Positions 3,766 to 28,838 of a DNA stretch of 64,000 nucleotides are shown piece by piece. Source of the DNA: a virus; IMG/VR virus record IMGVR_UViG_3300046517_001864, positions 3,880 through 67,879 of that record. The stretch is one strand, 5' to 3'. The notes beneath the pieces are model-generated. The model ran no database searches. It saw nothing but the letters and a program-made list of their open reading frames with translations, and was not told where the DNA came from. The number at the start of each line of letters is the position of its first letter. Position 1 is the first letter of the stretch. The translations under genes were made by a program, and so were the position numbers.

Positions 3766-3794
3766 ATTATAACACGTTCATGAAGTTTTGTCAA
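3766..3794 (-). promoter_or_regulatory. sigma70-type promoter with perfect consensus hexamers (TTGACA-17 nt-TATAAT) reading leftward
   Basis: Minus-strand sequence GTTGACAAAACTTCATGAACGTGTTATAAT; -35 at 3789..3794, -10 at 3766..3771; predicted start about 3759, i.e. at or adjacent to the ATG (leaderless or near-leaderless). Confidence 0.6.
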
Positions 3795-3922
3795 CTATCA
3801 ACACTTTACACCGAGCGAGCGATGAATTACCGCTGAGCTTCGCGAGCGAGGCGGCATTTTTTCCCCCGTTTCCCGTATTAACCCTGCTTAATCTTGGATT
3901 ATTATTCGACGCACGAACGGAT

Positions 3923-3992
3923 TTATCAACAACTTACGACGACGCCGCAAGGGGAAAAATCGATCGGATCGGTTCTTGTAACTTGTTGATAA
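3923..3992. repeat. 15-bp imperfect inverted repeat (TTATCAACAACTTAC / GTAACTTGTTGATAA) with 40-bp spacer in the divergent control region
   Basis: 14/15 complementary arms at 3923..3937 and 3978..3992. Confidence 0.45.
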
Positions 3993-10875: not shown

Positions 10876-12231
10876 ATGCCGCAGATTGAAATCCTCCAGG
10901 TTCGACCTGGAAATGTCGTGAGCTTTCTCGCCGAACCGCATTTGGTGCTTCAGCGGTTTAGCTACATGAACATCCATACGTTACTTCTCTTGAACAAAAA
11001 AGGCGAGGTAACGGAGCTTCGGGATTCGCAACTCAGTAAAACCGTTCCGACGGTGATGGAAAAGCTCGAAGACGCCGCAGCCTCAGAATGGCGAGAGAGT
11101 ATCGTCGGGAGCAAAACCGTTTTTGAAAAAGGTCACATGACCACCGGCGGCGGGTCGTGGATGCACATCGGAACTGATCCGGAGATTTTCGCGATGGATC
11201 GAAACGACCATGTGATTCCAGCGTTTGCGTATCTCCCTTCGAAACCCACCCCGAATCCGAACGGGCCACCCATTCCTGCGATATTCTTCGACGGGTTCCA
11301 AGCCGAATGGACAACAAATCCTTCCTCATGTCTCGGGCATCAAACGGATTATGTTCGGCAGGGGATGCAAGGTGTGCTCAACGCCGCACGGAAAATCGAT
11401 CCACAAGCAAAACTCTCACATCTGTCGGTAACCGACATCACATTCGATCCGACGCTACCCCCGGAGCGTTACCAGCTTGGATGCTCACCCTCAATGAACG
11501 CGTACGACGAACCCTCCGTGTTGATGGGGACGCCGGAGCTCCTTCCGTTTCGTTCAGCAGGATGGCATATGCATTTTCGAGGAACTACACCGCCGGTGAA
11601 TGCGGGTGATCCAGTGGATGGTTTCCATAGTGTTGATTCGAAAGAACTTGCCGCGAAGATCATCCAACTCGAAGATGCGATTCTTGGCACGGCATTGGTG
11701 AGTTTCGGCCAACATCACGTCGACCCCCGACGGAGGTTGATGTATGGTCGTGCGGGTGAATACCGGTTGGGGAAGACGCTCGAATACCGAGTGCCAGAGG
11801 TACTGATGGGATGCCATCCCGCCACGTGGAATCTGTTTTGGGACTTAGGCCGTGCGGTGTATTGGCTTGGGATGAGAGGGTTCAACTTCATCTGGGATGC
11901 CGATCCAACCGAGGTTCGAGAGGCGATCAACAACTCGAACGTGGCGTTAGCGCAGAAGATCCTTACGAAGAATATCCAGGTCCTGAATAGTATCTTCAAG
12001 TACCTCTACCGTGTGGGGCCGCTCAAGCCGACACCGGACTGGGCTCCGGATAAGATGGCTGTGAAAGCGATCCTCGAAGGTGCGAACGCGGTGTTGAACG
12101 ATCCAACAGCGGTGAGCAGGAATTGGCGGTTGGAGTCTGGCCAAACCTGGCAGAATGAAAGCCAAGGGCATCTCACCGGAACAAACTGGCGGACGTCTGT
12201 ACCAATGCTCCAAAGAGGAGAGAAACTATGA
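10876..12231 (+). CDS. large protein of unknown function (451 aa), flanked by the two GNAT-like paralogs
   Basis: SD AAGGAGACATATG; stop overlaps next gene (ATGA); no family recognised by eye. Confidence 0.6.
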   Translation: MPQIEILQVRPGNVVSFLAEPHLVLQRFSYMNIHTLLLLNKKGEVTELRDSQLSKTVPTVMEKLEDAAASEWRESIVGSKTVFEKGHMTTGGGSWMHIGTDPEIFAMDRNDHVIPAFAYLPSKPTPNPNGPPIPAIFFDGFQAEWTTNPSSCLGHQTDYVRQGMQGVLNAARKIDPQAKLSHLSVTDITFDPTLPPERYQLGCSPSMNAYDEPSVLMGTPELLPFRSAGWHMHFRGTTPPVNAGDPVDGFHSVDSKELAAKIIQLEDAILGTALVSFGQHHVDPRRRLMYGRAGEYRLGKTLEYRVPEVLMGCHPATWNLFWDLGRAVYWLGMRGFNFIWDADPTEVREAINNSNVALAQKILTKNIQVLNSIFKYLYRVGPLKPTPDWAPDKMAVKAILEGANAVLNDPTAVSRNWRLESGQTWQNESQGHLTGTNWRTSVPMLQRGEKL

Positions 12232-12821
12232 GCATACCCGCTCGGTTAGCAAACCTAATCAAACTCGATCCGTGGAAAACTCGGATTGAGAAACTCGAAC
12301 TCAGTGATATTCGTTTCGAAGGTGCATCGATTGCATCAAACTCGGATATTACTATTAAATTCCGGTATCAAAAGTGTGATCCGGTCATCACGGGTGTGAT
12401 TCCCGTCGGATGGTTTCCGGGATGCTGCGGGATTAACGTAATCCACCACATCAATTTTCCGTCGTGGGTGAAGTACGAAATCGACCCGGTGAAACGAGTT
12501 CCAATCGGACGAAAAGGAATCGGGACGTTGTTCATGGAGCTGGTGCTCGAAGCTTACAAGCAAGCTGGGCGAGAACGCACCGGGCCGGGGTTGTTACTCG
12601 CGGCCACAACGGGGTTCCAACGATCTGGGATAAAGATTCTCGAAAAGCTGAACTTCACCCAGGTTTGTACGGTCGTCAACCCTAACACCTCTCAAGAGGT
12701 AACGTTGTGGTATTACAAAACCTCGAAGTTCAAAACAGAGGCGGATATCAAACTCATGGAGAAAAGGAAAAAAGCTAAAGCAAAGCCGAAACCAAAGGCT
12801 AAACCGAAACCGAAACATTAA
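12228..12821 (+). CDS. GNAT-fold-like protein, paralog B, with C-terminal Lys/Ala/Pro repeat tail (KAKAKPKPKAKPKPKH)
   Basis: See paralog A; translationally coupled to the 451-aa gene. Confidence 0.5.
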   Translation: MSIPARLANLIKLDPWKTRIEKLELSDIRFEGASIASNSDITIKFRYQKCDPVITGVIPVGWFPGCCGINVIHHINFPSWVKYEIDPVKRVPIGRKGIGTLFMELVLEAYKQAGRERTGPGLLLAATTGFQRSGIKILEKLNFTQVCTVVNPNTSQEVTLWYYKTSKFKTEADIKLMEKRKKAKAKPKPKAKPKPKH

Positions 12822-13392
12822 CTTCTCATCGCCGCCCGTCGGGGTTACAACATAACCTGCTGCGGCATACTAACGGGATTAAAGCCATACCCAATGGCGA
12901 TGTGAAAATCCTCTACATGAATAACACGTCTAGATAACAGGATCTACCACGGATGACTCTTGCCTCTCCGATGTTTGTACGTCTCGAAGGAGAGTGCTCG
13001 ACACACGATGGTCTAGTGGGATCGAGTATTCGTAACCTCCATTGCAGGGCCGCTGAAGCCCTCGAAGGGTGTTACCGTAGCTCACTTAAGCCCACACGGC
13101 TCCTCAAGCCGTCATAAAGACCCTGGAGGCAAAAACGGAAAGAGCTCGGGAACCTATCCATCCGCGTGGGGTGGAGCAGAAACTCGCATCGGGCCGTGTA
13201 GAGGTGCCAAGGATCGTATTTGAAGTACAAGTTTACCAAGTAGCTGGCGCTGAGCTACCTAAGAATCTCCATATCTCATCGTGGCCGACGTTAGGTTCGT
13301 CAAAAGGCCGTGGAGGGGAACCGCTCCCACGGCATCGATCATGTTATGGAGAGATCTTAGATCGGGTTGGAGACGTAATTCCCGTGAGGTAA

Positions 13393-13439
13393 TTCATTTT
13401 GTGGGGAGTGTAGACTGGGTCAGGCGGGTTCGATTCCCG
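13393..13439 (+). ncRNA. tRNA-like minihelix (acceptor stem plus T-arm only) / truncated tRNA remnant
   Basis: GGGGAGT...CGGGTTCGATTCCCG...ACTCCCC: 7-bp acceptor-like stem with canonical T-arm (GGTTCGATTCC) but only 47 nt and no anticodon arm; sits in an 0.85-kb ORF-poor gap. Confidence 0.3.
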
Positions 13440-13764
13440 TGAACTCCCCTTCAAGTTTTCCACCCTTCGTTTGGTTAACACCTATGACGAATGGGGTACG
13501 CCGATTACCGGCGAGCTAAAGCACCGTTGGAGGCTAGGAAGCATGTTTATGTTGTAGAAGTTAGGACAGGTGCTAATCGGCGTCGCTTCGGCTTCGCCAT
13601 TAATATTAGCGTTATAACCTGCTGACAGAGTTTCTCACGGCATAACATACGGAAGGTCCGAGCGGAGGGTGGGAATAATAACCTATGAAAAACGAACTAA
13701 TCACAATCGGATGGATCGCGACGGGGATATTTATGCTTTGGGTAGCGTTTGCTCGGTGAGTGTT

Positions 13765-13944
13765 ATGGAATACCATTCATTATGTGATCACTGCGGGGAT
13801 CTGTTGATCGAAGATCATCGTCCCGCGCCGGGAGAATCGGTACATTGTTCTAGCTGTGGGATTACGTTCCCGCATGGACTTCGGGATTCCCATTGGCGGG
13901 AATGGTCTGATCCCTCCAAACCCGATTGGGCAGGTTGCGCGTGA
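13765..13944 (+). CDS. small zinc-ribbon protein (59 aa; CDHC...CSSC)
   Basis: Internal ATG of ORF-track 13669..13944; two CxxC pairs. Confidence 0.3.
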   Translation: MEYHSLCDHCGDLLIEDHRPAPGESVHCSSCGITFPHGLRDSHWREWSDPSKPDWAGCA

Positions 13945-14092
13945 ATGGTCTATGGGAGTTTTTCTTCTGCCCCGCTCACGGTGTGTTGCGATTCGTGGAC
14001 GGCGCTCATCTAACCTACGCTTGGGTATGGGTGCGTCATTCGAGCTACTACGTCCAGGCGTGGTTGTTATCACGTAAGGAGATTGTAAAATA

Positions 14093-14854
14093 ATGTACGC
14101 GTCTTACATTCCCGACAAAGGTACGATAGTCATGTACCCGGATTACAACTCCGCGATGGCGGATCGATTCCCGTATGAAGAAGTTGATTCCGACGCGTAT
14201 AACAAACTCATCCCAACGTTAGAATCAAACAGTCGGGTTTGTTTGACGTGTAGACGCGCTCGACTCGAACACTTCCGGGATCGATGTCGAACAATCGCGG
14301 ATTATGTAACAGGAGGACTTCCAACCGGCCATCCGATTGTTCGTCCACTTGTGGATATCATCATCTGTTCGTGTGGGGTCTCCGTAAATCGGGTGAAGAT
14401 CAACGGGAAAACTCGGTGCTACAAAGCCACCCGAGAGGAAATTCGTCGTTCGATCACAGGGAGATTAGCCACTACCCTGGCGAACGTACCTCAACCGAAT
14501 TGGACACTTGAGGCCCCAGGTCGATTCGCGCCAGACGTGTTACCTCGGCCAAGAGCTGGACGGACTCCGAGAACCGATCGGGATAATCTTGTCTTCAACG
14601 CAAGAATCGAGACAGATAACCTCACCCCACTTCAACAACGGGTTCGTCAGCTTACAGAAGCTATCATCGATCGTGATCGTCCAATGTTTCAGTGGGATCC
14701 GATGGTACGTCCGACAGCACCTCAACCGGAACCAGCCGAACCAAGAGTAACCGATCCGCCTCGTGTAGCGGATAACCAATTCACGGCTCTCCGACTAGAT
14801 GAGACAACCTTCGAACGGGTGGATGATGACATTCAACGAGAGGAGGAAGATTAA
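14093..14854 (+). CDS. hypothetical protein (253 aa), first gene of amidoligase cluster
   Basis: SD AAGGAGATTGTAAAATAATG; acidic C-terminus. Confidence 0.55.
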   Translation: MYASYIPDKGTIVMYPDYNSAMADRFPYEEVDSDAYNKLIPTLESNSRVCLTCRRARLEHFRDRCRTIADYVTGGLPTGHPIVRPLVDIIICSCGVSVNRVKINGKTRCYKATREEIRRSITGRLATTLANVPQPNWTLEAPGRFAPDVLPRPRAGRTPRTDRDNLVFNARIETDNLTPLQQRVRQLTEAIIDRDRPMFQWDPMVRPTAPQPEPAEPRVTDPPRVADNQFTALRLDETTFERVDDDIQREEED

Positions 14855-14857
14855 CCC

Positions 14858-15559
14858 ATGATTCACGGACGTTTTCACGGCGTAACAATCGTCAAACTCT
14901 CGCGAGCTGAGGGGGTGGAGATGCTAGCTTACCTCGGTTGGACTCGGATGATGTATGAAAAACTCATCCGACCGAAAGCTACGACCGAAAGTCCAACGGT
15001 CAAGCGACTACTTTCCTCTGTGCATGGGATTGAAACATGTATTCGAATGTACATACCTGGCGGTGGGTGGACCCCCGTAGATGCGCTGTACCATGAACGG
15101 TTAAACCAAAACAACCTCCTCCAACCAGGAGCAGCGGATGAAGGGTTATCGATTCTGTTAGGTTTTTCCGAAGAATTCATTCGGTCCATTAGCTCATACC
15201 CGAATCTATTCTCCGCTCCAACCGTCACCCGATTGTGTAAATCCGTTGATCGAAGGTTTCCGATCCGGGAATACCACCCCAAATCCGCTACGCTCGAACA
15301 ACGAACTCATTCCATCGAGTTAGTTGTACAACTATTCCAAATCCTCTCTGGGAATAACTCCGGAGAACTTTCCGGCGCGAATGATCGACAGTTGTTGTAC
15401 AACCAATCAACCGGGTTGGTGGAGATGTTGCGGATCTCCCACGATTTGAAGAACATCATCGCAAAGATCGATCATTGGACCGAAGTACTTGGTGCAGAAC
15501 GTCATGTATCGAAAGAGTTTGTTACAAAGACATTAAACACAAGGAGTATTTGTGGTTAA
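14858..15559 (+). CDS. hypothetical protein (233 aa)
   Basis: Tightly packed between 14093 gene and amidoligase (overlaps amidoligase start by 8 nt). Confidence 0.55.
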   Translation: MIHGRFHGVTIVKLSRAEGVEMLAYLGWTRMMYEKLIRPKATTESPTVKRLLSSVHGIETCIRMYIPGGGWTPVDALYHERLNQNNLLQPGAADEGLSILLGFSEEFIRSISSYPNLFSAPTVTRLCKSVDRRFPIREYHPKSATLEQRTHSIELVVQLFQILSGNNSGELSGANDRQLLYNQSTGLVEMLRISHDLKNIIAKIDHWTEVLGAERHVSKEFVTKTLNTRSICG

Positions 15560-16757
15560 CAAGGAAAAATTCTGCGTCAACTGCCTTCGTCGGGCTCGGG
15601 ATACGGAAAAAGCTTTAAAAACCGTCCACTCCCATCCGCTACGGCTCCCGAAGGAACACTGCGCGATCTGCCATCGATGCTCTTCTTGCCGGTGTATCTG
15701 TGTCATCTGCACGAAGTGTAAAGCACGTGTTGCAATGGCCCCAACGAAGTACTGCTCGCACTGTCGGATGTGTAAGAAGTGCGACTCATGCAGGAAAATG
15801 CCGCACTACCTTTCCACCGATCGGTGGGTGGGGACGCGGACATCTTCGCTCATCAACCCGTTGAATCGTACGCTTGGGTTGGAACTTGAGATTGCAAACT
15901 GGGGTACGTTGGAGAACTACCTCATGAACTACGCTCACTACGACCGAGCGCATGATTGGTCGGTGAAGCCATCTGAATCAGAGATGGTCCTCCAACCGTT
16001 AAAAGGGGATTACTTCCTCAAAGCGATGATGGAGTTGGCCGTAACCCTTGCAAAATCAAAAGCTTCGGTGAATGAAACCTGTGCGTTACACGTACACGTC
16101 GGAGGAACGGAGTTGTCATACTGGGAACTTCGACGTCTCCTGCGGGTATACGCGAAGCTTGAGCAAGAGATATACGATTATCTCATTTTACCACATCGGA
16201 GGGACACTCCGACGGTAGTTCACTACTGTCAGATGATGACTAAGCCTCACATCCATTGTGATCGATGTGATCGGTACGATCAACAGTATCCCCGAACCCG
16301 TCGGGTGCTGGAGGATCTCCACACTACGGTAGCTCGAATGGACCGGGCGCAGACCACCACAGATCTCAAAGCATGTTTTTTGAAGATGCTGTATAACATC
16401 CCCCGACCTTCGGAGAAGTATTCGAAAGAGCATCTTCCATCTCGGCTCCAAACCCTCCAAACCCACAAAGGCGGGAGATACGAATGGTGCCGGTACGTTG
16501 GGCTCAACCTCCACGCGTGGCAGTATCGTGGTACGGTCGAATGGCGAATGAAAGAAGCCACTACCCAGCTTGACGAGCTGATCTGCTGGCCGTTGTGGTG
16601 TGGGTGGTTTGTGGAAACCATCACCAAAATGACCGAGAAAGACTCCACCCGTTGGTGGACGTTGATCGAATTCACCGAGCGGTACATGCCAAAGTATCTC
16701 ACTGCATGGGTGAGTAATAAAGTTTCGCAAAGAAAGGTAGGACCGACGTTGTCATGA
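15552..16757 (+). CDS. amidoligase of the GCS2/YbdK (glutamine synthetase-like) fold with N-terminal multi-Cys zinc-ribbon region
   Basis: 'TLGLELEIAN' (G-x-E-x-E start motif) and 'ALHVHVG' (HVHVG motif) typical of gamma-glutamyl-cysteine-ligase-2-type amidoligases; N-terminal CxxC x6 cluster. Confidence 0.55.
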   Translation: MVNKEKFCVNCLRRARDTEKALKTVHSHPLRLPKEHCAICHRCSSCRCICVICTKCKARVAMAPTKYCSHCRMCKKCDSCRKMPHYLSTDRWVGTRTSSLINPLNRTLGLELEIANWGTLENYLMNYAHYDRAHDWSVKPSESEMVLQPLKGDYFLKAMMELAVTLAKSKASVNETCALHVHVGGTELSYWELRRLLRVYAKLEQEIYDYLILPHRRDTPTVVHYCQMMTKPHIHCDRCDRYDQQYPRTRRVLEDLHTTVARMDRAQTTTDLKACFLKMLYNIPRPSEKYSKEHLPSRLQTLQTHKGGRYEWCRYVGLNLHAWQYRGTVEWRMKEATTQLDELICWPLWCGWFVETITKMTEKDSTRWWTLIEFTERYMPKYLTAWVSNKVSQRKVGPTLS

Positions 16758-16948
16758 GTAAACTTTGGACTCCAAAGGACTACTGGCGTAAGGAAATCAT
16801 CGACGTCGCACTGAAAGAGATCGATCGAAACCAGGCGATTGTCTACTATCATCGAATGGACTGTCCACATCCGGAGTTTGTTCCGAAAGGAAACTTCTCG
16901 TCAGTCTGTGCGGTCTGTGGAAGAAATAAGGAGTTTATTAAATCATGA
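16754..16948 (+). CDS. small Cys/His protein (64 aa)
   Basis: ATGA overlaps on both sides; CPHPEF...CAVCGRNK. Confidence 0.4.
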   Translation: MSKLWTPKDYWRKEIIDVALKEIDRNQAIVYYHRMDCPHPEFVPKGNFSSVCAVCGRNKEFIKS

Positions 16949-17157
16949 AAACCCAATTCTGTTCCTTTTGTGGGAAAGACACGCTCCACAACCCATTGAA
17001 GAAAACCCCAAAAGGTGAACAGTTCTACCGTTGTGTGGTATGCGGGAACCCCCGCCGGTACAATGGAAAGAACTTTGCAATAGCTCTTGCGCCGGGTTCG
17101 AGAGCTGTGAACCTTCCCTACCCGATCCCACCGAAAGGTGCGTTGGGGGCATCATGA
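16945..17157 (+). CDS. zinc-ribbon protein (70 aa; CSFCGK...CVVCGNP)
   Basis: Two CxxC pairs; ATGA coupling. Confidence 0.45.
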   Translation: MKTQFCSFCGKDTLHNPLKKTPKGEQFYRCVVCGNPRRYNGKNFAIALAPGSRAVNLPYPIPPKGALGAS

Positions 17158-17447
17158 TGTTTGGATACAAACAAGGAGAAATCGTTGAAACCGATACCGG
17201 ACCTCACTTTGTGGTCCAAAATTCTTGCTACGGAAACATTGGCTTCGCATCGCTCAACCCCGTGGAAGGTCCGCCGACGAAAACGCAGCAGGAGTACCGG
17301 GACTATCACGCCGAGCAGAAGCGACGAGCGGAAGCCAAAGCCGCTGCGCTCCGGGAACGAATCCGTAATCGAATAGAACCCGATCTATCCGAAGAAAAAT
17401 TAATCGACCTTATCGTGGACCTTATCCACGAAGAAAGCGAGTACTAA
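17154..17447 (+). CDS. hypothetical protein (97 aa; ORF-track start 17031 likely too far upstream)
   Basis: ATG at 17154 overlaps upstream stop (ATGA); helical Glu/Arg-rich C-terminus. Confidence 0.4.
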   Translation: MMFGYKQGEIVETDTGPHFVVQNSCYGNIGFASLNPVEGPPTKTQQEYRDYHAEQKRRAEAKAAALRERIRNRIEPDLSEEKLIDLIVDLIHEESEY

Positions 17448-17450
17448 CTC

Positions 17451-18482
17451 ATGTGTGGAATATTCGGCTTTAGCCGTGTAACGGATGTGACCAAACAGAT
17501 GGCCATTCCGTTGATGTGGGAGATGGAGGATCGAGGACGGGACTCTTGGGGCTGCTCCAACGGAATCGAATGGATCAAACAGATCGGTCCGATCACCAAA
17601 ACGTGGCGGAAATACGAATCCGAATGGCACCAGTGGGAACGAGCAATCTTTCACACCCGTGCTGCTTCGCAGGGGAAGGTCTCCATCGAAAACCAACACC
17701 CGTTCCGTATTGACCATACGGAAGAGGATCAATCCGTCCGCACCCTCGTCGGAATCCACAACGGTGTCGTCTCCAATCATGACCAACTTAACGCCAAGTA
17801 CAAACGGGATTTTGATTGTGATACCCCGCATATCTACATGGCCCTCGCGGGGTTCTCTCCTACTCAGGAGATTCACGGGTATGGTAACCTGGCGTGGTAT
17901 GATTACTCGACCACAAACCCGACTCCAATCCTGCACTTCCTCCACTTTAACGCAGGGAACCTGAACGTCGCGAAGCTCGAATCTGGTGAGATGGTGTTCT
18001 GTTCCACGAAAGATCCCATCGATCGTGCTGCGGATTTCGCAGGAACCAAAATCGATCGGTACTTTCACCTGGAAGGGGATAAGATTTACTGGGTGGAACT
18101 GAACTACCAGGATGTCCCAGGATCGGACATGCTCATCGCTGGGCCGAAGCAATCCTTCGGCGGGAGGTCGATTCAAGGAACTGGTTGCGCTACTCCTTGG
18201 GATGGGCACCGTCCAGTTGGGTTACCCTTGTACGAGCACATCGCCGGAGCGAATCCCCGCAGGATGGGTCCTTCCCAAGTCCGGAACACGAATATATCCG
18301 AACTTGGCTCAGAGGATCGACAGAACAACATCTGCCTTAACAATCAATGCAAGAACAAAGTGAAACAATCTCGGCGGAAACAGCTCCTCTGTGAGACCTG
18401 CCTCGTAGCGGTAAAACAAAACCTCGCTTACATGACCACAATTCATGATCGGGTTCGTGGCCGAATGGGAGGTGCTGAATGA
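17451..18482 (+). CDS. class-II (Ntn) glutamine amidotransferase domain protein with C-terminal Cys cluster
   Basis: N-terminus MCGIFGF (catalytic Cys2 as in PurF/AsnB/GlmS); C-terminal CLNNQC...CETC. Confidence 0.65.
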   Translation: MCGIFGFSRVTDVTKQMAIPLMWEMEDRGRDSWGCSNGIEWIKQIGPITKTWRKYESEWHQWERAIFHTRAASQGKVSIENQHPFRIDHTEEDQSVRTLVGIHNGVVSNHDQLNAKYKRDFDCDTPHIYMALAGFSPTQEIHGYGNLAWYDYSTTNPTPILHFLHFNAGNLNVAKLESGEMVFCSTKDPIDRAADFAGTKIDRYFHLEGDKIYWVELNYQDVPGSDMLIAGPKQSFGGRSIQGTGCATPWDGHRPVGLPLYEHIAGANPRRMGPSQVRNTNISELGSEDRQNNICLNNQCKNKVKQSRRKQLLCETCLVAVKQNLAYMTTIHDRVRGRMGGAE

Positions 18483-18808
18483 ATGCAGGAAGACCTACCG
18501 GCTCGGTTGCGACGCCGGGTCGCATTCTTCGAAAGAGCCTCCAGGACTCGGCGAGGCTTGCTTCGCGTACGAGAAAATTACTTGAAGGGCGATTAGTAGC
18601 GATTGAGAAACGTCTCGCGGATGATCTAATTGGGGAGAACACTGACGGGTTGGTGGATCAGCTTCTAAAGATCATGTCCGCTCTCGACCGGACTGTCGAA
18701 CAAACCGGGCGGTTGCTAACGCAGAAACATACTCCGGTGGAAACCACCGAATCCGCCTCACCGACTGATATCATGCACGAACTTACGAAAGGAAAGAAAC
18801 CAAAATGA
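18479..18808 (+). CDS. hypothetical protein (109 aa)
   Basis: ATGA-coupled to GATase gene. Confidence 0.45.
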   Translation: MNAGRPTGSVATPGRILRKSLQDSARLASRTRKLLEGRLVAIEKRLADDLIGENTDGLVDQLLKIMSALDRTVEQTGRLLTQKHTPVETTESASPTDIMHELTKGKKPK

Positions 18809-19302
18809 GTACGGTTTACGAATACGCAACGGGACAGTTTCACATTCACGTGAAACTTGCGGGAGAGTTGGACAAGATCGAACTTTTCCACGCGATCATC
18901 GAAAAGATCGACGGGTCTTGGCCTTGGGGTCCTTCGAAAGGTAACCACGGCACGGTTCGGGTTTGTAGGAAGTGCAAGGGATTCCTTCTATCCAACCCCC
19001 GCTTCGCGCCACAGGATCTCAAAGCCGCAGGCGAACAGGCCGGGATTCATATCAAAATCTACGGTTATTCCCCTCAGCTCAACTGTTTCGAAGGAACCGA
19101 ATACCAGCACACCGAATCCATCGACCGTGTGGCCTGCCGTGCTCTCTACGGACACAAACCGAAACGGATCACGGTGCTGGGTGGGAAGCTTTGGATCGGG
19201 GATTCTACCCCAACAACCGGCCCTCGGTTGATCGAAGCTGTGGATCGAAAGGTCATTGAACTTCCTTCGGTCGCTCCGAAGGACAGCCAGTTGGTGAACT
19301 GA
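18805..19302 (+). CDS. hypothetical protein (165 aa)
   Basis: ATGA-coupled. Confidence 0.5.
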   Translation: MSTVYEYATGQFHIHVKLAGELDKIELFHAIIEKIDGSWPWGPSKGNHGTVRVCRKCKGFLLSNPRFAPQDLKAAGEQAGIHIKIYGYSPQLNCFEGTEYQHTESIDRVACRALYGHKPKRITVLGGKLWIGDSTPTTGPRLIEAVDRKVIELPSVAPKDSQLVN

Positions 19303-19471
19303 GATGTTCCACAAACAATTCTATCGCGGTCTCGACGGTCACTGGTATCTCCGAGGGTTATTCCACATCCTCCTTTGGCGGTCACCAGGACGAACTAAAC
19401 CAGGGAGCTTTGTTGGGTTATGCGGGAACTTATCGCCGGAGTAATCCTCCTCGAACTACTTCTCGCGCCGG

Positions 19472-20320
19472 TTGAACATTGGTTACATAGGAGAATATAT
19501 GGGAATACACGTCATCGGGCCGCAGGACTGGGAAACAGTCATTGCTTTAAATGACATGCTTCGGCATGTCCCGGAGGAAGGGACGTTCAAGCTGGGCGGA
19601 CGTCATTTCGAAGCGCAGGGGCAGTTCAAACGGTTTGACAAAGCCGGGGTCCCGACCGTCGAGTGGACCACGAATCTCACTACAGCGAAAGGATGGGTCC
19701 GAAACGGAGCAGCGGTGCTTGGACGAGACCGGTACCATTCTCGGGGGGAGGATATTGTTCTAGTATCCCACACTGCTGATATCACAGACGCTTGGGAAAG
19801 TAAGTCCGTCTGGACCAAGTTTGTCCCCTCCCAAGCCGAATGGCGATTCCATATCGTTAACGGGCAGTCCATCTCCCGGGATCTGAAGGTCTTCAACCGA
19901 CCCGGGCAGGGGCGAGGGTCCCTCGCGAGCATTAGAGCCCGCGCATGGGATTGGTCGGCCCGACATGATGTTGAGCCCCCAGCCGAGGCTCGCCGAGCTG
20001 CTGTAGCGGCTGTGGACGCGTTGGAGGGGTATACCCACGGTGCGGTCGACCTGCTTATCGACATGGAGTTCCGTCCAGTCGTGCTTGAAGTCAACCGCTG
20101 TCCGGGGATGGATGCCTACACCCGTGAGCGGTGGTGTAACGCGATTCGAAAGTTTGTACGATCTCACGGGCGGGGTAACGCGTCCGCTGAAACAGCAGCG
20201 GCCCGTCCACCAGTTCCAGCTTGGGTTCATCGACCCTCGACGGTCATGGCTCGGACCGAAACCGGGCGAATTTCGTCCCGGTCGAGAGAGGAATTCTACG
20301 AAGGCGTTGAGGTTGTATAA
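19472..20320 (+). CDS. ATP-grasp fold protein (candidate amide ligase)
   Basis: 'GAVDLLIDMEFRPVVLEVNRCPGMD' matches the ATP-grasp 'D...ExN..PG' C-terminal motif; alternative start at 19499 (SD AGGAGAA). Confidence 0.45.
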   Translation: MNIGYIGEYMGIHVIGPQDWETVIALNDMLRHVPEEGTFKLGGRHFEAQGQFKRFDKAGVPTVEWTTNLTTAKGWVRNGAAVLGRDRYHSRGEDIVLVSHTADITDAWESKSVWTKFVPSQAEWRFHIVNGQSISRDLKVFNRPGQGRGSLASIRARAWDWSARHDVEPPAEARRAAVAAVDALEGYTHGAVDLLIDMEFRPVVLEVNRCPGMDAYTRERWCNAIRKFVRSHGRGNASAETAAARPPVPAWVHRPSTVMARTETGRISSRSREEFYEGVEVV

Positions 20321-20336
20321 CTTACAAATGTCGGTT

Positions 20337-20446
20337 CCCCTGGGGCTGAGTATACTCCCTTGAATCTTTTCAATATTTTATATACTCCTAAGACGTTTAT
20401 ATTAAGATTTATTAAGAACAGTAAGAGAATATACTCCGCCCCAGGG
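20337..20446. repeat. 20-bp imperfect inverted repeat flanking a 67-bp AT-rich core; three copies of TATACTCC
   Basis: CCCTGGGGCTGAGTATACTC (20338..20357) versus rc of GAATATACTCCGCCCCAGGG (20427..20446), 18/20; a third TATACTCC at 20381..20388. Confidence 0.5.
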
Positions 20447-20466
20447 AGACCGAGACGGCCAAGTCG

Positions 20467-20844
20467 ATGAAAAGAGAGCACAAATCGGTTTCGGAGAATT
20501 TCCGTCGTCGAAATTCCCGGTTCGAAGCCCGACCGGGGCATCGGCAACGGCGAACGCCGAGGGTGTTTCAACCAAGGTTGTCGAATGAGCAGGTTCGAGA
20601 GTTGCTCGGTCCGGAAGCATTAAGAACTCTTAAGGAACTCGCTCAGGAGGAGATGAATGTGATTCGTCAGATGGAAGTATCAAAGTTCTGTGGAACATGT
20701 CATAGGATTCTTGTTGCGGAAGAGAACTTCCACAAGGACAACCACGAGCCAGATGGATGGTGCTGGGAGTGTAAGACCTGTGTACGAGCACGACGAACGG
20801 AACGACACCAACGAATTCACGACTTGATCTGGAGACGAGTATGA
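20467..20844 (+). CDS. zinc-finger protein (125 aa)
   Basis: CGTCHR...CWECKTC; basic N- and C-termini. Confidence 0.45.
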   Translation: MKREHKSVSENFRRRNSRFEARPGHRQRRTPRVFQPRLSNEQVRELLGPEALRTLKELAQEEMNVIRQMEVSKFCGTCHRILVAEENFHKDNHEPDGWCWECKTCVRARRTERHQRIHDLIWRRV

Positions 20845-23462: not shown

Positions 23463-23648
23463 ATGACCCTACACCGACTAGAAACCGAAGACGTTACCCA
23501 GTACGTCTTCCGATTCAAACTCTTCAACGGGCAGGAGTATAACTTCATCGCCCCAACAATGGAACTCGCGTTTGTGAAGTTTCAGAAACACGCTTCGTAC
23601 GAACCGAAGATTATCGCGGCGACGCAGATCTCGAAGTTGGATGGGTGA
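23463..23648 (+). CDS. hypothetical protein (61 aa)
   Basis: SD AAAGGAGACCCAATG. Confidence 0.35.
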   Translation: MTLHRLETEDVTQYVFRFKLFNGQEYNFIAPTMELAFVKFQKHASYEPKIIAATQISKLDG

Positions 23649-23832
23649 TATGATATCCTTCATCCAACGGTGGGCGATCGTCCTTGCGGTGATGATCATC
23701 GCGCTTAGTATAGCAAGTATCCTAATCCTAACTGGGATCTACGTCTCCGATCACTTTGGTGGGGTCGGAGTAATCGCATTTATTCTTATCCTCCTAAGTG
23801 GCTTTGTCGCCTCTTGCATCGATAGGGATTAA
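23641..23832 (+). CDS. small membrane protein with two predicted TM helices (63 aa)
   Basis: WAIVLAVMIIALSIASILILTGIYV and VGVIAFILILLSGFVASCI hydrophobic segments. Confidence 0.4.
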   Translation: MGDMISFIQRWAIVLAVMIIALSIASILILTGIYVSDHFGGVGVIAFILILLSGFVASCIDRD

Positions 23833-23867
23833 ACCCAGTTCATGAACCGACTTTAACCCCCAAACCA

Positions 23868-23896
23868 CTTGACATCGAGCGGTCGATGTGGTAAAC
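23868..23896 (+). promoter_or_regulatory. sigma70-like promoter candidate (TTGACA-17 nt-TAAACT) upstream of Sak4-like gene
   Basis: -35 23868..23873 perfect, -10 23891..23896 4/6; preceded by 10-bp palindrome GTTCATGAAC (23837..23846). Confidence 0.35.
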
Positions 23897-23927
23897 TAGT
23901 TTAAGCTCGAAACGGAGGCAACCTACT

Positions 23928-25803: not shown

Positions 25804-26166
25804 ATGAGGAATACTCTAACACAGGTTGAAGATCGGATATGCGAAGCGAAAGCCTCGACCCATAGTTCCGATAGAGCATCTCTTCTCACACGTCGTAGGT
25901 GGTTGCGGACACTGGTAATGTTGTCCTTAGGTGTATTCGGGATTCGTAATGCATCCTCAGGTGCTTCCACCCCAACGTGCGAGGATACGATTAACAAGTT
26001 TCAATGTTTGTTCAACGCGTGGGTGGAGCAGGTGAAGGAAAACAATCCTAACATCCTCGATGCGAAGCATCCCACAGCTATCCAAGACGAAATCGCCACG
26101 TGGCAAGTGGTACGTCACGAGTGGCGGGGGTTTGAGAAGCAGATTAACAAGATGTATGGAATTTAA
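25804..26166 (+). CDS. hypothetical protein (120 aa)
   Basis: SD GGAGAAATAATG; stop overlaps polymerase start (TAATG). Confidence 0.45.
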   Translation: MRNTLTQVEDRICEAKASTHSSDRASLLTRRRWLRTLVMLSLGVFGIRNASSGASTPTCEDTINKFQCLFNAWVEQVKENNPNILDAKHPTAIQDEIATWQVVRHEWRGFEKQINKMYGI

Positions 26167-28838
26167 TGTCAGAATTCAACAAAGCATTCATCGAACGTAA
26201 ACTCGCACCGAAGCCAGAGTTCTGCTCCCGGTGCCCCATCAACGAATTTACCGAAGGTTACGTCCCACTCGAACGAGGATCGGGAACGGAGCTTTGGGTA
26301 GGCGAGGCGGCAGGGGATGAGGAGGCAAGTCGTGGAAAACCTTTCATTGGCGGTGCTGGTAGTTGGCTTAACAGTATGCTTCAGTCTGCTAGGATTTCTC
26401 GTAGCAGCATTAGTCTTATTAACACTATCGGCTGTCATCCACCTGACAATATCTACCCTGGTTCAGATAAGTGGAATTTTACTGATCGTGCCGTTGCTCG
26501 GCAGGCGATTGATTACTGTCGTCAACAACACCTTGAACCAGCGTTAGTCCAGCTCAAACCAACCCGGATCGTGGCTCTTGGCAACGAGGCGATGAAAGCT
26601 GTTACGCCTCGGCAGGGTGTATTGCAATGGCGCGGATCGCCGTTACCACTGAAGGGAGCTCTGCACGCAGGCCCCCGGGTGGTACCAACCTTACACCCTG
26701 CTTTCCTAATGCGACAGGCGGGATTGTTCTCAGTCGCGGTGAAAGACTTACGTCGTGGGTTGGAATTACCTCCGGAGAATTATGATCTATACCCTAGCAT
26801 TGATACTGTTAAAGCGTTTACTGCGACTACGTTTTCTTTTGACTTCGAGTGGGACACGCTCAATAACATCACGATGTGTGGTCTCAGTGATCGATGGTAC
26901 CATGCGATTGTTGTGCCGTTTGTTCAACCTTTTATCACCGAGCTTAAGAGGATATTCGAAGCAGCAGAATGCCTCATTGGTCACAATATCGTCGATGCCG
27001 ATACGAGCTACTTCGATTCGTTGGGATGGAAGGTAACGGCGAGGCTTCATGATACGATGCTCGCGCAGCATCTGATCCAGCCCGACATGCGGCATGGACT
27101 TGGGTTTGTCGCGTCAGTGTTTTCGTCAAAGGTGTTTTGGAAAGGTAGTGGGGAGGAAACAGAAGATGATGCTGGAAATATTCTTCCAACCGGAGCTCAA
27201 TGGCGGACGTGGGATAGCCCCGACGCAATACCTCGGGAGTTTGGAGGTTACGGAGGCTGTCGTTCGAGCGATGAAGCTTGGAGATTATATAACGCTAGAG
27301 ACACCGATGGGACACTCCAATGCGAAGCTCGTATCTTTCGGACCCTCCGGGATTTCGGGCAGGAGTTCGTCTATACGAACGTCTCGGTCCCAGCGGCGTA
27401 CATCTGCCGAGACATCAACCGAACAGGTCTCAGGATTAACCCCAACAAAGTCACTGAAATTAGGGATACACTCTCGCGAGAAATCTCCGCGACGGAAGCC
27501 CTCCTCCCGGAAGGGTTAGCAGCGTATGAAAAACCAATCACCAAACAAATTGAGGCTCCTGCTGGAACGTATGCGCCGAAAGTCTTACGGTGTAAGGGAA
27601 CTCGAAAAGCTGGAACAGTTCACGATCTGGTTGAGTGGACAGTATCCACTCCTGGAGTATGCGGATGTCCTACGTGTGGTAAGGAATTCTCTCCTAAACT
27701 TAAACAAGTTAAACGAATCAAAGTTCCAGGAACTAAACGGATTGTGCCGTGGAACAGCACGGCACAAGTAATCACGTATGCTAAAGCCAAAGGTTGTAAA
27801 GAAGTCCCGCACGCGAAGACCGGTAATTCTTCTGGAGACAAACGTGCCCGTAAAATTTGGGGCCGTGAACATACAGAATTCACCCTTGTGGATACTCTTA
27901 AGAGGCTTGTCACACAGCGAAATAGCTTCGCTAAAGAAGCATTGCAAGGTCTTGACTGGGTCAGGTTTCGCCTCGCAGTTACGGGTACTTCCGAAGGACG
28001 TCTCTCATGTTCTGGAGTCTATCCTGCGAACCTGAACCTCCAGAATCAACCCAAAGCGATCAAAAAGATCTTCATCCCTGATAAAGAAGGTTATGGAATT
28101 CTCTCCCATGATATCGTCCAAGGAGAAAACATGCTCACCGCATGGCTGGCGGAGGATTGGCCACGATGGGAGAGACTCAATACTCCGGGGTTTGATGAGC
28201 ATAGTTACATGGCTAGTCGGTTTTTCAATACCCCGGTTGGTCCAAATGACCCACTCAGAAAACCTGGTAAGGTTATCAATCACGGTCGGAATTACGGACT
28301 CGGTGAGCGGAAAACACAAGACTATCTGTCTTTGGAAGGATTCCAATTCTCGATTGCGGATATCCGAGAGATGATAAATATATGGAAAAAGGAAAACGCT
28401 CGTACCGCAGCATGGCAACAGGAGACCGTACACCTCGCACAGAAGCAAAGCTACCTCGACAATCCGTTCGGAAGACGGAGGTGGTTCCAAGGGCGAGACT
28501 TCGCTACCAAGGCATTGGCATTCTTACCGGCTTCGACACTAGCCGATATGGTTCTTCGAATGATGTTAGCTCACTACCCAGAGAGATTTGGATCAGAGAT
28601 TTTAAATTTAGGACTTGGTGTTTGTACATCGCTAATGGAGAACTGGCGTTTGGCTCTACAAGTCCACGACGATCTCGTATTCATCGGTCCAGATGAATCC
28701 CACCGCGAGATGGCCCAACGCACCCGAGCGGTGATGTCGCAGGAATGGAAAGAGCTTGGAGGTTTCCACTTCCGGGTGGAGACGAAGTATAGCACCACGA
28801 CATGGGGTGATGGGAAGGTTCTGGAGATGGTGGCATGA
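26166..28838 (+). CDS. family A DNA polymerase with N-terminal family-4 uracil-DNA-glycosylase-like domain and 3'-5' exonuclease domain
   Basis: N-term 'GEAAGDEEASRGKPFIGGAGSWLNSML' = UDG family-4 motif A, 'HPAFL' = motif B; 'FDFEWDT' exo I; 'RKPGKVINHGRNYGLG' = PolA motif B (RRxAKxxNFGxxYG); 'QVHDDLVF' = motif C. Confidence 0.9.
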   Translation: MSEFNKAFIERKLAPKPEFCSRCPINEFTEGYVPLERGSGTELWVGEAAGDEEASRGKPFIGGAGSWLNSMLQSARISRSSISLINTIGCHPPDNIYPGSDKWNFTDRAVARQAIDYCRQQHLEPALVQLKPTRIVALGNEAMKAVTPRQGVLQWRGSPLPLKGALHAGPRVVPTLHPAFLMRQAGLFSVAVKDLRRGLELPPENYDLYPSIDTVKAFTATTFSFDFEWDTLNNITMCGLSDRWYHAIVVPFVQPFITELKRIFEAAECLIGHNIVDADTSYFDSLGWKVTARLHDTMLAQHLIQPDMRHGLGFVASVFSSKVFWKGSGEETEDDAGNILPTGAQWRTWDSPDAIPREFGGYGGCRSSDEAWRLYNARDTDGTLQCEARIFRTLRDFGQEFVYTNVSVPAAYICRDINRTGLRINPNKVTEIRDTLSREISATEALLPEGLAAYEKPITKQIEAPAGTYAPKVLRCKGTRKAGTVHDLVEWTVSTPGVCGCPTCGKEFSPKLKQVKRIKVPGTKRIVPWNSTAQVITYAKAKGCKEVPHAKTGNSSGDKRARKIWGREHTEFTLVDTLKRLVTQRNSFAKEALQGLDWVRFRLAVTGTSEGRLSCSGVYPANLNLQNQPKAIKKIFIPDKEGYGILSHDIVQGENMLTAWLAEDWPRWERLNTPGFDEHSYMASRFFNTPVGPNDPLRKPGKVINHGRNYGLGERKTQDYLSLEGFQFSIADIREMINIWKKENARTAAWQQETVHLAQKQSYLDNPFGRRRWFQGRDFATKALAFLPASTLADMVLRMMLAHYPERFGSEILNLGLGVCTSLMENWRLALQVHDDLVFIGPDESHREMAQRTRAVMSQEWKELGGFHFRVETKYSTTTWGDGKVLEMVA

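Follow-up and report, generated by a model that had tools for sequence, protein, structure and literature searches.

The gap between a gene for an ATP-grasp enzyme and a gene for a zinc-ribbon protein holds a previously undescribed cis-element of an uncharacterised phage clade, consisting of two long arms, which drift in sequence from lineage to lineage and stay complementary, around an AT-rich core. Because its architecture is real, present in a single copy and conserved, it is a functional cis-element, and comparison of related sequences indicates a genuine control element (an expression gate and/or a replication origin) and not a general promoter motif. The element was analyzed within a DNA stretch of 64,000 nt (hereafter the window), the genome of an uncultured, podovirus-like phage.

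Genes on the + strand of the window, between ~3.8 and 34 kb, include those encoding a COOH-NH2 ligase, an amidoligase, a glutamine amidotransferase and the ATP-grasp enzyme. Past the element they continue with the zinc-ribbon ORF, a PD-(D/E)XK exonuclease, Sak4, a UDG-PolA fusion, a primase/helicase-like protein and a polymerase exonuclease subunit; the first five of these make up the replication/recombination block to which the element is the entry. Genes on the - strand are structural and encode the major head protein, a portal/adaptor-like protein and large internal proteins with a transglycosylase. The window contains no tRNA genes. At the DNA level the phage collection contained no relatives, and its best match to PolA was 24-26% identical. 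A search with the exonuclease returned 146 matches, many of them on contigs of 64-71 kb; no homologues of this protein were found in the phage collection or in GTDB genomes, and the clade is known from metagenomes only.

Two statements of the initial annotation, that a 20-bp inverted repeat is present and that it lies in a 146-bp gap, were confirmed: CCCTGGGGCTGAGTATACTC occupies 20338-20357, its reverse complement, with two mismatches, occupies 20427-20446, and the gap separates the ATP-grasp stop at 20320 from an ATG at 20467. The segment between the 20-mers, given there as 67 bp of about 75% AT, is indeed AT-rich and on recomputation measures 69 nt with 76.8% AT. Ungapped extension of the repeat yields arms of 31 nt, 84% complementary, with 61 nt between them. 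The coordinates of these arms and of the other features are collected in the table below.

Features of the element and of its two flanking genes, numbered as in the window
Feature	Position	Strand	Sequence and remarks
ATP-grasp (RimK-like) gene, upstream	19499..20320	+	PHROG RimK-like, E=1.4e-22; stop 10 nt 5' of left arm
Left arm of inverted repeat	20331..20361	.	Outer part G+C-rich, TCGGTTCCCCTGGGGC; inner part with GAGTATACTCCC; relatives covary
Motif AGTATACTCCC	20349..20359	+	Consensus AGTAYWYTCYC; just inside left arm; mirror AGTATATTCTC at 20425-20435 (-)
AT-rich core	20362..20422	.	No conserved secondary structure; conserved sequence blocks (alignment)
Second TATACTCC copy, then TAAGA	20381..20393	+	Consensus TATAMTCTCT-TAAGA in four close lineages
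ATTAAGATTTATTAAGAAC	20401..20419	+	TTAA-N6-TTAA, starts 20402 and 20412; kept in all five first lineages
Right arm of inverted repeat	20423..20453	.	AAGAGAATATACTCCGCCCCAGGGAGACCGA; ends 13 nt 5' of zinc-ribbon ATG
Third TATACTCC copy	20430..20437	+	Within right arm; not kept as direct repeat in relatives
Conserved block GCNAAGTNNTTGAAA	20458..20472	+	Spans start codon; no Shine-Dalgarno
Zinc-ribbon gene, downstream	20467..20844	+	125 aa; Arg-rich basic N-terminus, helix, CxxC...CxxC

Within the window this structure stands alone. The CCCTGGGGCTGAGTATACTC pair was its only match when up to three mismatches were allowed (shuffled sequences gave 0), the extended arms form the longest inverted repeat among those with arms within 250 nt of each other, and neither motif searches nor an inverted-repeat scan nor a covariance model detected a second copy in the window. 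Folding of the element gave -50.4 kcal/mol, far below shuffles (z = -6.4); z-scores ranged from -5.5 to -6.4 for the window and the related lineage L003, and reached -2.6 for another lineage, L004.

To gather relatives, the ATP-grasp, zinc-ribbon and exonuclease proteins were used in protein searches, contig look-ups and collection scans. An inverted repeat was found in the same slot, just 5' of the zinc-ribbon ORF, in the window and in eight further lineages, the nine counted being the window, L003, L008/L016, L011, L004/5/6, L055, L063, L067 and L056. The left and right arms are AGTTTGGGCCTTGTGGGGCT and AGCCCCACAAGGGCCGAACT in L003, TGTTCCGGTCTTATTT and AAATAAGACCGGAACA in L008/L016, TGGGACGGCCTTA and TAAGGCCGTCCCA in L011, and CGTTACCCATGGTCGGAG and CTCCGACCTTGGGTAACG in L004/5/6. 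Those of L055 are 31 nt long and 84% complementary, those of L056 are 18 nt long and 94% complementary, and 17 of 18 positions pair in L063 and 16 of 17 in L067. In each of five lineages tested against 200 dinucleotide shuffles, the natural inverted repeat surpassed all 200. Spacers between the arms measure 60-156 nt and are 63-77% AT across lineages. Two variants, from members at a greater distance, occupy the same place: an AT-only inverted repeat around three copies of the 14-nt direct repeat TGCATTACTGTACA in L057, and two local 12-bp hairpins in L064. Distant contigs that have only the ATP-grasp cassette in common with the window (L007, L009/10) show no gap at that place; in L007 a perfect TTGACA-17-TATAAT promoter is enclosed by a 25-nt inverted repeat. 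Exact and degenerate arm and flank patterns run across IMG/VR brought up nothing new, single-protein and zinc-ribbon-profile scans of IMG/VR recovered one already known contig only, and a scan of GTDB genomes found none.

Pairing, and not sequence, is the property that the arms have kept. RNAalifold applied to four close lineages predicted the closing helix only, with compensatory changes at 15 of its 19 pairs. An independent count over the four lineages found 91.8% of cells paired, a level reached by none of 500 shuffles, whereas sliding the partners by 1-3 columns left only 35-63% paired; the covariation score was 0.78, vs 0.30 in shuffles. The arms are at the same time the fastest-changing part of the element: between L016 and L011, some 7 of the 19 arm positions have changed and the core block TTAACTTTTATTAAGAA is identical, and core blocks and flanking coding sequence are much more alike than arms between close relatives. 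Since the arms diverge and pairing persists, selection acts on pairing and not on arm sequence; and arms that evolve fast yet remain complementary favor a hairpin, in RNA or in single-stranded DNA, over a fixed dyad recognized by protein. At its foot the helix nevertheless has eight base pairs, TTGTCGGT/ACCGACAA, whose sequence is conserved in the window, L055, L063 and L067, so that some sequence recognition at the base is possible. Part of the compensatory signal could be mimicked by concerted evolution of the arms through template switching at quasi-palindromes. The covariance model was built from the four close lineages and does not reach the more distant ones, and covariation beyond four sequences thus rests on the inverted-repeat statistics of each lineage.

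As regards the strand, fold energies favored the + strand in three lineages and the - strand in two. Among arm positions, 211 are Watson-Crick pairs and 33 are not (6 G-T, 9 A-C and 18 other), so that G-U pairs show no excess on either strand, nor do they speak clearly against an RNA of one strand. Lack of a G-U excess together with inconsistent strand energies means that the helix could act equally well in single-stranded DNA. An arm separation of 60-156 nt is easily bridged by RNA and is unfavorable for cruciform extrusion. RNase III needs roughly two turns of double-stranded RNA, and the helices of the nine lineages, at ~18-31 bp, have the structure of a substrate for this enzyme (~20 bp or more of largely continuous double strand).

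The core differs from the arms in that blocks of its sequence are conserved. The most AT-rich 60-mer of the window is located at the element, with 80% AT against a mean of 47%, a content that fits the unwinding element of a replication origin. Three blocks are common to the four close lineages: AGTAYWYTCYC, just inside the left arm; TATAMTCTCT-TAAGA; and ATTAA-N5-TTAAG, in which TTAA starts lie 10 bp apart. In a shorter notation what is kept reads TATAYTCYC, ATTAA-N5-TTAAG and phased TAAGA, and TTAA-N6-TTAA also occurs in L004. AGTAYWYTCYC matches the window at the AGTATACTCCC and AGTATATTCTC sites only, and is found as well in L003, L016, L011 and L064. TAAGA starts at 20389, 20403, 20413 and 20422, the last three ~10 bp apart. 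Other repeats are specific to single lineages, namely TATATACT, twice, in L056, and ATTTTCAC, twice, with the DnaA-box-like TTATCAACA in L055.

The octamer TATACTCC, reported initially as triplicated, does occur three times, at 20351, 20381 and 20430 on the + strand, but this triplication is not kept in relatives and only the first two copies correspond to the motif of the close lineages. The third copy arises because GAGTATACTC in the left arm is a palindrome, and the triplication is hence partly a by-product of the dyad. A further copy, at 23534 on the - strand, sits within a small ORF read off the sequence and is thus coding and on the opposite strand. The total of four compares with 0.97 expected and was reached by 2 of 100 shuffles. 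Spacing of the copies in the element is not regular (30 and 49 nt), whereas TAAGA and TTAA are phased at 10 bp. The search of the whole genome for TATACTCC upstream of genes, which the initial annotation had proposed, revealed no enrichment, and TATAHTCYC and AGTAYWYTCYC are not spread through intergenic regions. Hence TATACTCC is not a genome-wide promoter motif, and one half of the outcome named there as speaking against its reading (lack of enrichment elsewhere, together with neither promoter nor origin activity in the region) is what was found. A micro-ORF noted in the core (ATG at 20328, 11 codons) was rejected, being not conserved in L003 as judged by eye. Resemblances to boxA/boxB of lambda nut and to the CtrA site TTAA-N7-TTAA were considered and dropped on account of a misfit in spacing and sequence.

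The arms are fitted closely between the neighboring genes. Wherever the upstream ORF was identified, the left arm starts 3-17 nt after its stop codon, and the stop-codon context TAACTTAC of the ATP-grasp gene is common to four lineages. The right arm ends 0-20 nt 5' of the start codon, at 0 nt in L055, 2 nt in L063 and, L056 apart, 10-20 nt in the others. An ATP-grasp gene precedes the element in the window, L003, L008, L011 and L004; in L067 the element follows a 157-aa ORF, and an ATP-grasp gene is missing from L055. Comparison of these gene orders indicates that the element travels with the downstream gene and not with the upstream one. That downstream ORF, although missed by some gene callers, is a real gene and is conserved: in all lineages its product keeps an Arg-rich N-terminus (Arg-Gly-rich in L056), a helix and CxxC-N20-22-CxxC. 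The protein gave no significant match in Pfam, among PDB sequences or in AlphaFold/Foldseek, and its PHROG matches cover the CxxC...CxxC part only. A Shine-Dalgarno sequence is absent from the gene in eight of the nine lineages and present in 38 of 60 genes of the window. In L056 the arm itself appears by eye to hold GGAGG and a GTG start, which the ORF scan did not list.

Promoter sequences in the window indicate that the phage uses host-type promoters. Taking as a sigma-70 promoter a TTGACA-like -35 and a TATAAT-like -10 hexamer 16-18 bp apart, its true promoters score 10-12/12, and the consensus ones are TTGACA-17-TGTTATAAT, which is perfect, at 3794 (-) and TTGACA-17-TAAACT at 23869 (+). 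The suggestion that the element is a strong regulated promoter is not borne out, as the element lacks a sigma-70 consensus though the same phage has consensus promoters elsewhere. A canonical sigma-70 promoter was absent from the element of every lineage, where the best match scored 9-10/12 at positions that are not conserved; the best one in the window, TTGAAT-15-TATACT, scores 9/12 and has too short a spacer. No candidates appeared in the elements of L011, L056 and L057 at the thresholds used. An intrinsic terminator, defined as a short G+C-rich hairpin with a loop of 3-8 nt followed by a U-tract on the transcribed strand, was likewise rejected: the + strand of the gap gave no match, the loop measures 61 nt, and the right arm is not followed by a T-run.

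Beside its consensus early promoters the window carries a 15-mer, TTATCAACAACTTAC, as an inverted pair. Among relatives this 15-mer is found within the core of L055, in the core of L004 (13/15 matching, with the last 12 nt exact) and 60 nt upstream of the element of L003; the element of the window retains only AACTTAC of it, at the stop codon. This distribution hints at a shared trans-acting regulator that visits promoter sites and the element across the clade.

Our tentative preference, at somewhat short of an even chance, is for an element working at two levels, in which a helix in read-through mRNA would gate or process zinc-ribbon gene expression, and a protein-binding, promoter or unwinding site in DNA would be provided by the AT-rich core. 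We infer that the helix acts in RNA, and the same applies to each functional step described here. In mRNA reading through from the upstream amidoligase/ATP-grasp genes, a closing helix of 20-30 bp would form, looping out the core and bringing the upstream stop codon beside the zinc-ribbon start codon. Gating may then be exerted in three ways: the helix may occlude the start region of the zinc-ribbon gene, an RNase III-type enzyme may cleave this ~two-turn helix, or ribosomes may terminate and reinitiate across its base. As DNA, the core would be a platform of short conserved and lineage-specific repeats binding phage or host factors, and may be a region that unwinds easily or an internal promoter/operator dependent on a factor. 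Any transcript starting inside the core would carry the right arm only and escape the gate.

Translation of every mRNA carrying both arms must be affected by a helix of about two turns that borders on the start region. That all lineages have kept such a helix beside the start codon speaks for an effect that is put to use, not just tolerated. Because no promoter is conserved inside the core, the escape of internal transcripts needs some further factor. Counted against the two-level reading is that an RNA loop would not require an AT content of 63-77%. No other long helix occurs in the 64 kb, so that the phage does not use RNase III processing as a general strategy.

That the element is a replication origin, with the core as unwinding element and the short direct repeats in it as iterons, is possible and on balance unlikely, and an origin may coexist with the two-level element. 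In such an origin each arm could bind a copy of an initiator or helicase, the two copies being oppositely oriented, or hairpins on both strands could hold the melted core open for loading of primase and helicase. The likeness to an origin drawn initially stands as far as an AT-rich dyad, present once and at the head of the replication genes, is concerned, and fits less well as regards a cluster of DnaA boxes and conserved, regular iterons. In favor of an origin, the element is unique in the genome, contains its most AT-rich stretch and its longest inverted repeat, and lies directly upstream of the replication and recombination genes; it has short repeats (TATACTCC three times, TAAGA/TTAA at a 10-bp phase), and this slot holds repeats particular to the lineage in L055, L056 and L057. 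Arm mismatches are strand-symmetric, as expected of a dyad at the DNA level, and the AT-richness of the element is not accounted for by a consensus promoter. On the other side, no initiator gene was identified, and DnaA-box-like 9-mers are absent from the window's element (L055 alone has three). The window's copy has no conserved, regularly spaced iterons: the spacing of the TATACTCC repeats is irregular and their triplication not conserved. The drift of the arm sequences would oblige a sequence-specific initiator to be re-specified repeatedly, though TTGTCGGT/ACCGACAA is kept in four lineages. The turns in GC skew, at ~4 kb and ~34 kb, coincide with switches of the gene strand, and there is none at 20.4 kb; the general disadvantage of cruciform extrusion across a 60-156-nt spacer also weighs against an origin.

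The arms might instead be paired operators, that is, inverted sites for a phage regulator, dimeric or tetrameric and possibly identical with the zinc-ribbon protein, which would loop or occlude the core and so switch the downstream module on or off; we hold this to be quite improbable. It would agree with the palindromic sites that the phage has near its promoters (3923-3992 and 23825-23860), with conservation of the 8-mer at the helix base in four lineages, with the constant position of the element beside a gene for a basic protein of nucleic-acid-binding type, and with the inverted repeat of L007, which brackets a real promoter. However, the arms are the least conserved part in close relatives, where the core and the 15-mer operator TTATCAACAACTTAC are conserved, their spacing varies over 61-156 bp without helical phasing, and the 15 compensatory pairs out of 19 are most simply explained by base pairing.

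An equally small probability is given to a combination of DNA and RNA functions that would be a dual-use device of a new kind. Its core would serve as origin or switch site and be recognized as DNA by factors specific for structures or repeats, perhaps by the Arg-rich zinc-ribbon protein, and the covarying helix in mRNA would loop this site out and hand the terminating ribosome, or RNase III, to a start codon devoid of Shine-Dalgarno. If so, synthesis of the first protein of the replication module would be tied to the state of the origin.

Slightly less probable still is a small non-coding RNA gene, or an RNA excised from the operon transcript by cleavage of the closing helix, with a conserved AU-rich loop acting in trans. 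A covarying closing helix with conserved loop blocks and the strong folding z-scores would suit such an RNA. Against it, there is no promoter or terminator of its own, the loop is without conserved internal structure and no strand is preferred; moreover, no family of Rfam 15 was recognized in the window at the gathering threshold, and the E-value mode of Rfam returned only generic miRNA-precursor hairpins, at 14-29 bits vs thresholds of 60-144. Very improbable, finally, is an invertible promoter switch or a MITE-like insertion with terminal inverted repeats, as suggested by inverted repeats that flank an AT-rich segment and by the opposite orientation of TTATCAACAACTTAC in L055 and L004: the element is identical and in the same orientation in two independent samples of the phage, the core keeps one orientation in four close lineages (alignment scores of 36-61 forward vs 16-23 reversed), no recombinase was found among the proteins scanned, a 61-nt spacer is too short for known invertases, and the MITE variant conflicts with one copy per genome, lack of a target-site duplication, a position kept across a deep clade and terminal arms that are the least conserved part.

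The element is the clearest non-coding signal of the genome, and it marks the junction of the amidoligase/ATP-grasp cassette with the replication genes. Whether origin or expression gate, it offers an experimental handle on a clade known from metagenomes only, and its signature of sequence and structure can be used to find the same junction in other members. Its presence also shows the zinc-ribbon gene to be real and linked to the element.

Several known systems share traits with this element. The primary origin of phage T7, between genes 1 and 1.1, comprises the promoters phi1.1A/B, the R1.1 RNase III hairpin and an AT-rich stretch. Like the element, it is an AT-rich intergenic stretch of a podovirus placed before DNA-metabolism genes, and it combines transcription signals with a processed RNA hairpin. 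The T7 hairpin is, however, local and does not enclose the AT-rich region, and T7 has its own RNA polymerase and promoters, none of which were found here; the two phages are unrelated, the best known PolA match being 24-26% identical. Origins in which inverted initiator sites bracket an AT-rich unwinding element include archaeal oriC with ORB elements (e.g. in Haloferax), HSV oriS and the SV40 and papillomavirus origins. They resemble the element in having a dyad around an AT-rich core, in one copy per replicon and beside replication genes, but their arms are conserved in sequence because protein reads them, whereas here the arms drift and complementarity alone is kept.

Long imperfect hairpins also serve as single-strand origins or promoters, as in ssoA of rolling-circle plasmids and Frpo of the F plasmid. 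As in these, structure is kept over sequence, short motifs are conserved and a -10-like TATACT lies in the paired inner arm. By contrast, ssoA and Frpo are strand-specific and act on single-stranded intermediates of replication or transfer, and no strand bias was observed here; and unlike rolling-circle plasmids, the phage encodes PolA, primase and helicase and lacks a rolling-circle Rep.

Long-range helices in mRNA that gate a downstream cistron are known from rpmI-rplT coupling in the E. coli IF3-L35-L20 operon, from the coat and replicase genes of MS2 and from the RNase III-sensitive leader of lambda N. The present element differs from them by the AT-rich block of 60-156 nt, with conserved, DNA-like motifs, that would be looped out. 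It agrees with them in that sequences lying far apart in one mRNA would pair and cover or adjoin the start of the next gene, and in the known systems translation of the upstream gene or RNase III alters the effect. As to lambda N, the zinc-ribbon protein has no similarity to N and no site of boxA/boxB type was recognized; in both, though, the gene that is gated, or would be, encodes an Arg-rich basic protein.

In the public gene calls for two contigs (L001, 996-1517; L003, 10774-11297), about 520 bp are left without a gene, because the basic zinc-ribbon ORF (125-134 aa) that follows the inverted repeat was missed. Conservation in nine lineages establishes this ORF as a real gene. The only further exact copy of ATTAAGAAC in the window falls within it, at 20619-20638, where the TTAA-N6-TTAA arrangement occurs again (TTAAGAACTCTTAAGGAAC), and L003 retains this arrangement at the DNA level. 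The TTAAGAACTCTTAAGGAAC stretch may be a by-product of the coding sequence (LRTLKEL) or a second binding site.

Other features, among them putative regulatory sites, are listed in the table below. The leftward genes of the window are driven by a predicted sigma-70 promoter, beside which two copies of the 15-mer TTATCAACAACTTAC stand in inverted orientation to each other. In three relatives (L055, L003 and L004) the 15-mer lies within or next to the counterpart of the inverted repeat under study, and it is probably the operator for a regulator common to the clade. Ahead of the Sak4 gene, a 22-nt palindrome (GGGATTAAACCCAGTTCATGAA...) stands directly 5' of a good promoter, an arrangement that looks like an operator with an internal promoter.

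The gene cassette immediately upstream of the inverted repeat was also found in the distant phage L007. Downstream, a single 890-aa protein, DNA polymerase A (26166-28838), combines an N-terminal uracil-DNA-glycosylase-superfamily domain with a 3'-5' exonuclease domain. At the tRNA-like non-coding stretch no tRNA was detected by ARAGORN, and the Rfam match was confined to the 15-nt T-arm; the stretch may represent a tRNA-like minihelix or what is left of an attachment site.

Features in the window and in compared contigs
Feature	Contig	Coordinates	Strand	Details
Sigma-70 promoter	window	3789-3821	-	perfect match, TTGACA-17-TGTTATAAT
15-mer pair	window	3923-3937, 3978-3992		40 nt between copies
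15-mer	L055	3101-3115	-	
15-mer	L003	10701-10715		
15-mer	L004	10879-10890		13/15 match, last 12 nt exact
Ligase cassette	window	10876-20320		COOH-NH2 ligase, amidoligase, glutamine amidotransferase, RimK-like ATP-grasp
tRNA-like stretch	window	13395-13450		resembles acceptor stem and T-arm (GGGGAGT...CGGGTTCGATTCCCG...AACTCCCC)
Palindrome and promoter	window	23825-23897		22-nt palindrome; TTGACA-17-TAAACT with TG
Inverted repeat	L057	2961-3124		perfect, 16 nt, AT-only
Two local hairpins	L064	2430-2512		12 bp each
Inverted repeat and promoter	L007	12206-12294		25 nt, 80% complementary, around perfect TTGACA-17-TATAAT

Variant architectures were found in other genomes. In the clade member L064, local hairpins take the place of the long-range helix, and the motifs TATATTCTCTC and AAGTCGTTGAAA are retained. 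The inverted repeat of L007, with the promoter that it surrounds, lies directly 5' of a DnaB-type helicase gene. In L057, a relative of 40% identity, the inverted repeat occupying the same position as the element encloses a 14-nt direct repeat, TGCATTACTGTACA, in three copies with spacings of 17 and 19 nt, and the palindrome TATATCTTCTT/AAGAAGATATA comes after this array; the L057 arrangement looks iteron-like.
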